From NCBI GenBank assembly GCA_016280905.1, contig JAEEHN010000007.1:28621-92620 (forward strand): a stretch of 64,000 nucleotides of DNA, given 5' to 3'. Position 1 is the stretch's first letter, and every line of letters starts with the position of its first letter. The notes below the pieces were generated by a model. It saw nothing but the letters and a program-made list of their open reading frames with translations. It had not been told where the DNA came from and made no database searches. Positions 53,758-56,183 of the stretch are shown in pieces. The stretch is from Candidatus Saccharimonadota bacterium. GTDB lineage: Bacteria; Patescibacteriota; Saccharimonadia; Saccharimonadales; Saccharimonadaceae. A program made the translations under genes and the position numbers.

Positions 53758-54873
53758 TTAATAGATGTAATTAAAATTTCCAGTGTAAGTTGCCGGGATT
53801 GTGGCTTCAGTCACTACATATCTACCGGCGTAGTTCATTTCACGAACTACTATCGAGCCATCATCATTAATCCCCACTACAACACCTACGTGTCCATAAC
53901 CACCACCGCCATAAGGGCTTTGGAAGACCGCGCCTACTTGCGGGGTTCTACCTACGCCACGATAAGCGTAGTTGTATTGCCAAGTATTGGCATTACGTCC
54001 CTCGTGACCTAATACGCCCAAAGATAATGGGCTAGTTGCACGCCACCACCAAGCATACCAGGTGCACCAACCCGGCGCACCTGGATTGGGGTTTGGATAA
54101 GGATAATTGGCGTCATAAAAACCAGTCGCAATCACCTGGACGTTTTGTCGAGTTGAAGAATCGCCAAGATAAGTATACGTGTAAACAGTCCTAACTGGCG
54201 GTACATACTCTGGGCGTTCCTTCACCGGTAGAGAACCATTTTTCACAAAAATTCTGCTACCCTCAGCCAGCCCAACCACATCAAGATCATTAAAAATTGT
54301 AATCTCTGCAATATTTGCGCTCAATTTTTCGGCGATTGATTCTACGGTATCACCACTTTTAACTGTATAAATAATTCCTGATTCTTTTGGCACATAAAGC
54401 ATCATGCCTGCCGAAATGTCGGTATTTTTAAGACCGTTAGACCAACGGATTTGATCGGTGGAAACACCGTATTTATTAGCAATACTGTCCATTGTCTCCC
54501 CCTCACCAACGGTATAAGTAATTATCCATTCACGGCCCTCTACATCTGTTAGGTTTGGTTTTTCAAGCCTACCTGAACCGGTCTGACCTGCATCGTATAG
54601 AGTTTGGGTAACGACGTAATTTGAAGCTACTTCTGGTGCGCTAGCAAGACTCATAGCATCCGACAGATCTGCCACCACATATAGCTCCGACAGCTGATCG
54701 ACTGAGATTTTATAATGACTTGCAACAAAGGCATCAAGACTGAGATTCATCTCGGGATTGTTTTTATCCATTGAGCCCACAAAAACTAATATTAAAGTCA
54801 CAAACCCAGTGATAAAATACGGCAATACCCCCTTGAACCGCCTAAAATCAAATTTCCTTTTTTTTCTTGTCAT
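53758..54873 (-). CDS. LysM x2 + CHAP peptidoglycan hydrolase
   Basis: YTVGEGETMDSIA, YTVKSGDTVESIA; GWCTWY, YGHVGVV, EMNY. Confidence 0.92.
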   Translation of the reverse strand: MTRKKRKFDFRRFKGVLPYFITGFVTLILVFVGSMDKNNPEMNLSLDAFVASHYKISVDQLSELYVVADLSDAMSLASAPEVASNYVVTQTLYDAGQTGSGRLEKPNLTDVEGREWIITYTVGEGETMDSIANKYGVSTDQIRWSNGLKNTDISAGMMLYVPKESGIIYTVKSGDTVESIAEKLSANIAEITIFNDLDVVGLAEGSRIFVKNGSLPVKERPEYVPPVRTVYTYTYLGDSSTRQNVQVIATGFYDANYPYPNPNPGAPGWCTWYAWWWRATSPLSLGVLGHEGRNANTWQYNYAYRGVGRTPQVGAVFQSPYGGGGYGHVGVVVGINDDGSIVVREMNYAGRYVVTEATIPATYTGNFNYIY

Positions 54874-56183
54874 AATGATATGTTACAGAGAACTTGGCAA
54901 TAACGACGTATATTCTGGATGTGCTCTGCCTCTGTATAACTATAATACATCAAACCATCATCTCCTGTCAAGAAATAAAGATAAGCCGTATCGCGTGGCT
55001 CGGCCACCGCAAGAAGTGCTGAAAGCCCCGGGTTCGAAATGGGTCCACAGGGCAAACCGCCATGCAATCTAGTATTATAGCAAGAATCTACTTTTAAAGC
55101 TGATTGATTATCTGTGTAGATTTCCCGGTTGGGATCCAATATGTTTAACGCATAAGTCACCGTTACGTCGCTTCCTAGAGGTATGCCATAATTTAATCTG
55201 GCTAAGAACACTTGTGCCACAGTAGGCTGTTCTGGTGACGGAGCTTCTTTTTGTACGATAGAAGCCAACGTAATTCCCTCGAACAAAGATAAACCTCTCT
55301 TTGCGTATCTGTTAACTAAATCGTTTTCATCAATGATCCGCCCCATTTCTTTCAAAAACACTTTCAGAATCTCTTGTACTGTCGAATCTTTATAGAATTC
55401 GTGTGTTTCACCATATAAGTATCCCTCTAAGCTCGCTTCAGCTGGCCGATTTTTTAGGAACTCAAAATCATACTCTGAGTTAAACCCAGCTTCAATTTCT
55501 TCTGGGGTATAACCAATTTCCGCTAACTTTTTCTTAATATCGAAAATTGTCTCACCTGGCAAAATTGTAAAATTAAACACTTCAGCTTTATCATTTGCTT
55601 CCATCTCAGCAAACTGTTCAGCATATTTTTTATAGCGCTCATTTCTGATCCAAAGCGCTCCACCTGTTGCGAGCAATCCTAGAATCACTACTATAGCCAC
55701 CGCTGCAATAACTCTTAAAAAAGTTTTAGGTTTTTTTTTGCCATGTTTTTCCTGTATTTTGGTCGAAGAAATACTATTCCAATTCATATTTCCATCCAAA
55801 AAATCTTGCAAAATGATTGTAGCAGCTTCGGCATCAACTTCACCTTTTCCGTAGCGTTTTTTACGTGATTTCAAGCGTTCTTCCGCTATCACGGAAGTTA
55901 AACTTTCGTCTTGGAAATAGATTCTGGCCCCTGGTATTTTCTTGGTTAAAATTTTAGCGAAATTACGTACGTATATGGTCTGTTTAGTTTCGTTTCCATT
56001 ATTGCTGCGGGGTAATCCCAATACGAAAAGATTAGTACTATTTAAGCGTGCTAAACGAGCAATTTCCTGCCATTCTGAACCATCCACGACGAGAAACCCG
56101 ACCGGTATCGCAATCCGTGTGCTTGAGTCCGCCTTAGCTACGCCGATGCGTTTTTCGCCTACATCCAGGCTAAGTACTTTCAT
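54870..56183 (-). CDS. ruvX-mltG: RuvX(YqgF)-MltG fusion protein
   Basis: LSLDVGEKRIGVA, QDESLTS, VDAEAATIILQDFL; TM helix; SLEGYLYGETH, LASIVQKE, GPISNPG, YLYF. Confidence 0.92.
   Translation of the reverse strand: MKVLSLDVGEKRIGVAKADSSTRIAIPVGFLVVDGSEWQEIARLARLNSTNLFVLGLPRSNNGNETKQTIYVRNFAKILTKKIPGARIYFQDESLTSVIAEERLKSRKKRYGKGEVDAEAATIILQDFLDGNMNWNSISSTKIQEKHGKKKPKTFLRVIAAVAIVVILGLLATGGALWIRNERYKKYAEQFAEMEANDKAEVFNFTILPGETIFDIKKKLAEIGYTPEEIEAGFNSEYDFEFLKNRPAEASLEGYLYGETHEFYKDSTVQEILKVFLKEMGRIIDENDLVNRYAKRGLSLFEGITLASIVQKEAPSPEQPTVAQVFLARLNYGIPLGSDVTVTYALNILDPNREIYTDNQSALKVDSCYNTRLHGGLPCGPISNPGLSALLAVAEPRDTAYLYFLTGDDGLMYYSYTEAEHIQNIRRYCQVLCNISL

Follow-up and report, generated by a model that had tools for sequence, protein, structure and literature searches.

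A single gene encoding both a RuvX/YqgF nuclease and an MltG endolytic transglycosylase was identified in a 64,000-nucleotide stretch of contig JAEEHN010000007.1 (hereafter, the window), which derives from a ruminant-gut Saccharibacteria (TM7) genome; among named taxa, Ca. Nanosyncoccus (TM7 group G3) is the closest to it. Judged from sequence comparisons, this fused ruvX-mltG gene is real and conserved, and its product is predicted to span the membrane. We consider it likely that two neighbouring genes fused to give a bifunctional protein, with its N terminus inside and its C terminus outside the cell (N-in/C-out), in which the two enzymes work independently. The gene lies at positions 54870..56183 on the minus strand and is an uninterrupted open reading frame (ORF) of 437 codons plus a stop codon, starting with ATG. 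A Pfam search found two domains, RuvX (PF03652) and YceG (PF02618), in the one protein of 437 amino acids (aa), and both families scored above their curated cutoffs, including those of NCBIfam. This agrees with a sequence-only reading of the same DNA, which had described one 437-aa ORF with both domains; the motifs that it quoted were also all found, namely, DVGEKRIG (containing D7), DESLTS (D92 and E93), DAEAA (D117), and SIVQKE (E313). The protein is laid out as RuvX (aa 1 to 131), a linker (aa 132 to 154), a transmembrane (TM) helix (aa 155 to 179), and MltG/YceG (aa ~199 to 437). An AlphaFold2 model of the whole protein, built on 49 homologues, had a mean predicted local distance difference test (pLDDT) score of 71.

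The RuvX/YqgF RNase-H-like nuclease domain (aa 1 to 131; 55791..56183, minus strand) matched PF03652 over aa 1 to 130, covering profile positions 1 to 133 of 134 (107.3 bits against a cutoff of 29.2; E = 1e-30), and the NCBIfam model TIGR00250 (RuvX) with 77.8 bits (curated cutoff, 43.25). In the AlphaFold2 model, the domain has the strand (b) and helix (a) order b-b-b-a-b-a-b-a-a at a pLDDT of ~80, which is the RNase-H-type fold of the family. A Foldseek search of this part against the PDB returned the RuvX structures 1nmn, 1nu0, 1vhx, 7ess, and 7w89 with a probability of 1.0 and target-normalised TM-scores of 0.67 to 0.84. The three carboxylates of the family are in place as an Asp in beta1 (D7; codon at 56163-56165), a Glu after beta5 (E93; 55905-55907), and an Asp in alpha3 (D117; 55833-55835), all on the minus strand and assigned by alignment to homologues. 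These three residues and D92 were invariant in all 218 fused homologues aligned. D7, E93, and D117 are the counterparts of D22, E106, and D122 of Deinococcus radiodurans YqgF, and the substitutions D22A, E106A, and D122A impaired or abolished the RNase activity of that enzyme (PMC9601230). What RuvX usually does is debated between rRNA processing and Holliday junction resolution: Escherichia coli YqgF has been implicated in 16S rRNA 5' maturation and in antitermination, the mycobacterial and Helicobacter pylori homologues cleave branched DNA, and the D. radiodurans YqgF acts as an RNase but not as a resolvase (PMC9601230; PMC9670183).

The extracytoplasmic MltG/YceG moiety (aa 199 to 437; 54873..55589, minus strand) comprises the second N-terminal subdomain and the catalytic domain. 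PF02618 matched aa 188 to 427 over profile positions 55 to 275 of 275 (174 bits against a cutoff of 32.4; E = 6e-51), and TIGR00247 (MltG) matched with 120.5 bits (curated cutoff, 103.4). The MltG core was well predicted by AlphaFold2, and Foldseek matched the C-terminal part to the PDB entries 4iiw, 2r1f, 8yq7, and 8yoa. The catalytic Glu is E313 (codon at 55245-55247, minus strand), as its motif LASIVQKE aligns with MASIIEKE of 2r1f and MSSIIEKE of 4iiw. This residue is kept in 217 of the 218 fused homologues. The profile is not covered in full, since proteins of the window's clade lack positions 1 to 54 of the Pfam YceG profile while their catalytic part is intact, a feature that the sequence-only reading had overlooked. 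A complete match to positions 1 to 275 was obtained with the unfused MltG proteins of loci L026 and L032 and with the longer fusions P0124, P0130, and P0148. What the window's clade has lost is the first N-terminal extracytoplasmic subdomain, of ~80 aa, and MltG starts ~20 residues past the membrane, after aa 180 to 198 (55590-55646); the loss places the catalytic domain much nearer the membrane in this clade. Two distant fused proteins, P0243 and P0183, have RuvX, the TM helix, and the N-terminal part of YceG (profile positions 1 to ~170), followed by a GH73 glucosaminidase domain (PF01832), and a pattern search of both for the canonical MltG motif [LMI][AS]S[IVL][IV][EQ]xE found no match. 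In this lineage, the catalytic half of MltG is evidently replaced by the predicted glucosaminidase, with RuvX and the TM helix kept.

The two domains are joined through a single TM helix (aa 155 to 179; 55647..55721, minus strand), which is the only stretch of the protein with a hydropathy above 1.6 (Kyte-Doolittle value, 2.6) and which lies within one long helix (aa 157 to 196) of the AlphaFold2 model. The sequence KHGKKKPK directly precedes it, and the net charge of the 15 flanking residues is +5 before and +2 after the helix; the basic linker followed by a single TM helix is thus as the sequence-only reading had it. All 28 fused representatives follow the positive-inside rule, with net charges of +2 to +9 before the helix (at least +4 in 27 of them) and of -4 to +2 after it. 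Unfused MltG proteins have a homologous helix as their N-terminal anchor, and one TM helix N-terminal of YceG is the arrangement of the MltG family, here in a predicted orientation. Hydropathy, charge, and the structural model are consistent with an N-in/C-out bitopic protein in which RuvX would be in the cytoplasm and MltG outside the membrane.

The cytoplasmic linker between RuvX and the helix (aa 132 to 154; 55722..55790, minus strand) is Lys rich, with six Lys and Arg residues against one Asp or Glu, and is predicted to be disordered (pLDDT below 50 for aa 132 to 152). In the homologues, it varies from 21 to 294 aa and is of low complexity (rich in Lys, Ser, Pro, and Thr), with almost no conserved positions. 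In the window, it contains a run of nine A residues (A9; 55731..55739, minus strand) that encodes K149 to K151. Two points would fit a sequencing or assembly artefact in which a lost stop codon or an indel joined two separate genes: a homopolymer at the junction is a classic site of indel errors, and a related assembly (loci L029 and L030) shifts frame at a similar run. However, in three independent metagenome runs (X1, X2, and X3; public data from two studies), Logan contigs span the linker and cross the A9 run at the same run length, with no insertion, deletion, or stop; the X1 contig (12.8x depth) is from a different strain, with four substitutions relative to the window. More than 200 distinct fused homologues, 36% to 100% identical, also keep the frame open, and most of them have no homopolymer at the junction. 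We therefore reject an assembly artefact, which appears extremely improbable given the agreement of independent contigs and the hundreds of fused homologues.

The fusion is also widespread. Each of the best 120 clusters at 90% identity had both domains, at 60% to 100% identity and full coverage, and the named ones carry the name 'endolytic transglycosylase MltG [Candidatus Saccharibacteria bacterium]'. A single fused ORF was present in 26 of 28 GTDB species-representative loci, all from Saccharibacteria and mostly from metagenome-assembled genomes of ruminant or other gut origin, with Ca. Nanosyncoccus alces among them. Among the best 150 representatives of 50%-identity clusters, 35 were fusions, each with one hydrophobic helix between the domains. 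All named matches belonged to Saccharibacteria or TM7, except for one contig. That contig (CAVDHS010000024.1; locus L027), labelled 'Bulleidia sp.', encodes a fused RuvX-MltG that is 58% identical to that of the window and has the length and layout of the one in locus L018, and it is probably a mis-binned contig of Saccharibacteria. Read support across the junction and the frequency of the fusion in related genomes, which the sequence-only reading had named as its checks, have thus both come out on the side of a genuine and shared gene.

One ORF could still give two products, through proteolysis in the linker, internal initiation, or transcriptional or translational slippage at A9, but we regard this as distinctly unlikely. 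The A9 run does lie in the linker, and both shifted frames reach a stop within one to five codons, so a soluble RuvX of ~152 to 156 aa would result from slippage by +1 or -1. In addition, the linker is disordered in the AlphaFold2 model, the relative in L029 is split at a run of ten A residues (A10) in the equivalent Lys-rich stretch before the TM helix, and many fused homologues keep a Met that resembles a relic start before the helix. However, the long A-run is not found across the family, the A9 run being confined to the window and loci L001, L016, L018, and L027, and most homologues have no run of seven or more. The window lacks the relic Met, and its only in-frame candidate for an internal start, M133, is absent even from the closest relative, L001. 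With neither the A-run nor an internal Met conserved, a two-product route is not a feature of the family. A conserved internal start for a separate MltG was accordingly rejected, as was programmed poly(A) slippage as a family feature; for the gene in the window, slippage is a minor possibility.

A trace of the former gene boundary may be visible in the same region of the relatives. In the linkers of L002 to L019, many fused homologues share a 'KKEADKVKLNTKKAKHKMKT..KW' segment directly before the TM helix, and the Met in this segment ('KHKMKT..W') looks like the relic of an old mltG start. For comparison, the N termini of unfused MltG proteins read MKWWQW (L026) and MKTKKS (L033).

Separate but adjacent ruvX and mltG genes in the same order, the pattern expected of a Rosetta-stone pair, were found in loci L026, L028, L032, L033/L034, and L038 and in Southlakia epibionticum. 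In L026 and L028, the most distant of the species representatives (39% to 42% identity), ruvX encodes 135 aa and mltG 336 aa with an ATGA overlap, and the upstream gene encodes a membrane protein of ~540 to 570 aa, as in the order of the window. The corresponding products are of 138 and 350 aa in L032 (ATGA overlap), 153 and 367 aa in L033/L034 (ATGA overlap in L033), and 138 and 343 aa in L038 (11-nucleotide overlap). In the cultivated and genetically tractable S. epibionticum ML1, SEML1_0654 (RuvX; 399 nucleotides) and SEML1_0653 (MltG; 1,446 nucleotides) overlap by 1 nucleotide (PMC10633639, Tables S1 and S2); genes for a 'baseplate J/gp47 family protein' and PilM lie on one side of the pair, and the gene for a LysM protein and obg lie on the other side (PMC10633639). 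The order baseplate-J-like gene, ruvX, mltG, and LysM-CHAP gene is common to fused and unfused Saccharibacteria. From this comparison, the ancestor is predicted to have had ruvX and mltG side by side with overlapping ends, and the overlaps suggest that the two genes are translationally coupled in the unfused relatives. Because stop and start overlap by only 1 to 11 nucleotides, usually as ATGA, one small indel is enough to fuse them.

The fusion probably arose at least twice independently. When 129 MltG cores were placed in a neighbour-joining tree, one large clade took in 24 of the 26 fused representatives together with unfused proteins (P0150, P0161, P0155, P0145, and others), and the fused proteins P0148 and P0151 fell elsewhere, among unfused ones. 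The MltG domain of P0148 is 57% to 58% identical to the unfused P0275 and P0233 and 36% to 43% identical to the main fused clade, and the gene order of its locus (L035) matches that of the unfused L038; these identities and the placement in the tree argue for at least two origins. The reverse step may be seen in L029/L030 (two runs; L029 positions 3380-4976), which have the same synteny but encode ruvX (159 aa) and mltG (378 aa) in different frames with a 20-nucleotide overlap. The MltG of this locus is 58% identical to that of the window, and the break is in the A10 run of the Lys-rich stretch directly before the TM helix; removal of one A from the L029 run restores the fused frame. Either a true frameshift or one homopolymer error made in both assemblies could account for the split. 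Fusion events thus seem to be recurrent and sometimes reversed.

In the mechanism that we favour, a flexible Lys-rich linker of variable length would hold RuvX to the cytoplasmic side of the membrane, the TM helix would be MltG's own N-terminal anchor, and the extracytoplasmic MltG with Glu313 would cut nascent glycan strands. RuvX would act on RNA or DNA while anchored, probably in 16S rRNA 5' maturation. The fusion itself would add only an obligatory 1:1 co-expression and the membrane localisation of RuvX. The enzymatic activities of the two halves, as well as their independence, are predictions from residue conservation and comparative data. Membrane-attached RNases are known from other bacteria, such as RNase Y of Bacillus subtilis, which has an N-terminal TM helix, and RNase E of E. 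coli, which has an amphipathic membrane-targeting helix. Anchoring of RuvX would therefore meet no obstacle in principle.

Transposon sequencing (Tn-seq) of S. epibionticum bears on the independence of the two halves. RuvX was scored NE/ES/ES (8, 1, and 1 insertions) and called essential after passage, whereas MltG was scored NE/NE/NE with 62 to 82 insertions and called dispensable (PMC10633639, Table S1). With RuvX essential and a separate MltG dispensable, the essential job of RuvX in that organism must be independent of MltG. This result, the finding that closely related operons have the genes either fused or separate, and the unconstrained linker suggest that neither activity depends on the other.

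The sequence-only reading had gone further and proposed a trans-membrane chimera that ties the nuclease to the machinery of wall elongation, possibly linking ribosome maturation or DNA resolution with growth. Its anatomy and topology agreed with all tests run, but the coupling received no direct support, and an origin from neighbouring genes is simpler. If the tether were selected, RuvX would localise or regulate MltG, or MltG would position RuvX at sites of wall synthesis, so that ribosome maturation or nucleic acid processing would be linked with envelope growth; this idea is live but unproven, and we think it rather unlikely. Several observations fit with it: the adjacency of ruvX and mltG is kept from Saccharibacteria to B. 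subtilis, the fusion probably arose two or more times and persists at 36% to 40% identity with both active sites invariant (E313 in 217 of 218), and RuvX and the TM helix are retained where the GH73 glucosaminidase replaces the catalytic half of MltG. Cytoplasmic parts of MltG also have partners elsewhere, since EloR, an RNA-binding protein, is bound via its Jag domain by the cytosolic domain of pneumococcal MltG, and the cytoplasmic segment of Enterococcus faecalis MltG is phosphorylated by IreK with a phenotypic effect. However, the two genes are separate in many Saccharibacteria, the cultivated S. epibionticum included, and unfused forms are nested among fused ones in the neighbour-joining tree. 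Moreover, neither the length nor the sequence of the linker is conserved, and disorder is predicted for it, RuvX and MltG differ in essentiality in S. epibionticum, and the overlapping gene ends make fusion a cheap and possibly near-neutral mutation.

Independent action of two fused neighbours, which we prefer, nevertheless has points that weigh against it. The recurrence and the deep retention of the fusion, also in the GH73-swapped lineage, may reflect selection for the tether itself. Post-translational cleavage or separate translation of the halves is possible. The claim of multiple fusion events is rough, as it uses a simple neighbour-joining tree in which some of the representatives may be fragments. 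Finally, no second, free copy of ruvX or mltG was found within the 64-kb window, which was the sole region checked.

A more specific view, which we hold to be quite unlikely, is that the essential job of RuvX is done at the membrane in these tiny epibiotic cells, where it would be physically coupled to peptidoglycan remodelling. The PilM/FtsA-like, baseplate-J-like, RuvX-MltG, and LysM-CHAP proteins would then form a conserved envelope module, and the job could be late 16S rRNA maturation or the processing of incoming or branched DNA in these naturally competent bacteria. If this view were true, the ruvX-mltG synteny across Terrabacteria would be the sign of a real and undescribed functional link.

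Compared with canonical MltG proteins (E. coli, 2R1F; Listeria monocytogenes Lmo1499, 4IIW), the fused protein has the same single N-in/C-out anchor followed by an extracytoplasmic YceG domain and matches them in fold and in the catalytic Glu of ASI(I/V)xKE, but the short cytoplasmic tail is replaced by the 131-aa RuvX and the linker. Unlike the unfused MltG proteins of Saccharibacteria, those of the window's clade are without the first N-terminal extracytoplasmic subdomain. The MltG proteins of Streptococcus pneumoniae (with DUF1346) and E. faecalis share the layout of cytoplasmic segment, TM helix, and extracellular MltG. In these, a DUF or a disordered segment makes up the cytoplasmic part and serves as a regulatory or interaction platform (EloR binding; IreK/StkP phosphorylation), whereas in the fused protein it is a nuclease domain with intact catalytic residues that stems from the upstream gene. 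The general architecture of MltG has been described (PMC12369325).

On the nuclease side, the stand-alone RuvX proteins of E. coli (1NU0/1NMN), B. subtilis (YrrK, 1VHX), Mycobacterium tuberculosis (7ESS), and D. radiodurans (7W89) have the same full-length RNase-H-like domain with three carboxylates, and the fused domain matches in size the free RuvX of Saccharibacteria that lack the fusion (135 to 153 aa). The listed stand-alone proteins are of ~130 to 170 aa with no membrane-spanning partner, whereas the fused RuvX would be anchored to the membrane through its C terminus. The dimer-dependent cleavage of Holliday junctions reported for some RuvX homologues would, in the fused protein, be confined to the two dimensions of the membrane. 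RNase Y and RNase E are unrelated to RuvX-MltG in fold and family and have no extracytoplasmic enzyme fused to them, but they set a precedent for RNA processing at the membrane face. A further counterpart is the unfused pair of other Saccharibacteria, such as S. epibionticum (SEML1_0654/SEML1_0653), and of Firmicutes (B. subtilis yrrK...yrrL), which has the same genes, order, and neighbours but makes two polypeptides where the window has one ORF.

The fusion is a Rosetta-stone case of operon neighbours joined across the membrane; both families are well known, and the combination is absent from the literature searched. The search did not find the fused architecture, nor any joint mention of 'ruvX' and 'mltG' or of 'Saccharibacteria' and 'MltG', and 'YqgF' and 'YceG' were mentioned together only in a B. 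subtilis gene list. Databases already hold the fused architecture, under the name MltG only at NCBI and with both halves named in one JGI entry. The MltG-only name hides the RuvX of the genome. Fused genes named in this way may contribute to undercounts of yqgF in bacteria of the candidate phyla radiation (CPR), in which yqgF has been reported to be less conserved (PMC12641178).

If the fused copy is the only RuvX of the cell, as it is in the 64-kb window, the function of RuvX would be compatible with permanent membrane anchoring, which would constrain models of what it does. The fusion is also a Rosetta-stone hint that the widespread pairing of ruvX and mltG may exceed chance. In B. subtilis, STRING links yrrK (BSU27390) with yrrL (BSU27370), which is two loci away (PMC3814617). 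The fusion is common in a whole branch of Saccharibacteria, but this is not proof that the two activities work together. These bacteria offer a natural experiment on whether the pairing matters, as their operons differ only in having the pair fused, unfused, or re-split, and genetic tools exist for the phylum.

The genes on both sides of the fusion are conserved as well. Upstream, with a gap of 2 nucleotides to the fused gene, lies the gene for a 567-aa membrane protein (56186..57889, minus strand) that is called 'baseplate J-like' in its orthologues. Its N-terminal part is cytoplasmic and is followed by an acidic stretch of low complexity, a TM helix, and an extracytoplasmic domain of large size; the 567-aa protein itself had no significant Pfam match, and its orthologues gave weak Baseplate_J matches. 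A baseplate-J-like gene also adjoins ruvX in L026, L028, L029, L032, L033, L035, L037, and L038 and in S. epibionticum (SEML1_0655), where it was essential by Tn-seq and belongs to a family flagged as enriched in Patescibacteria (PMC10633639). Downstream, a LysM-LysM-CHAP peptidoglycan hydrolase is encoded at 53758..54873 (minus strand), its start overlapping the stop of the fused gene by 4 nucleotides (ATGA type). The position of this gene is kept in every related locus whose contig reaches far enough downstream, and its S. epibionticum orthologue SEML1_0652 was essential by Tn-seq, unlike MltG (PMC10633639).

Farther out in the window, alaS and an FtsA/PilM-like gene are located a few kilobases upstream and obg directly downstream, a neighbourhood that echoes the alaS...ruvX...mltG order of Firmicutes. 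In a scan of the operon, promoter-like sites numbered 12 where 10.3 were expected, and none of the internal sites made a convincing terminator. The listed ORF of obg (52258-53688, plus strand) begins at a GTG codon ~10 residues before the canonical MFVDTAKV, and the internal ATG is probably its true start.

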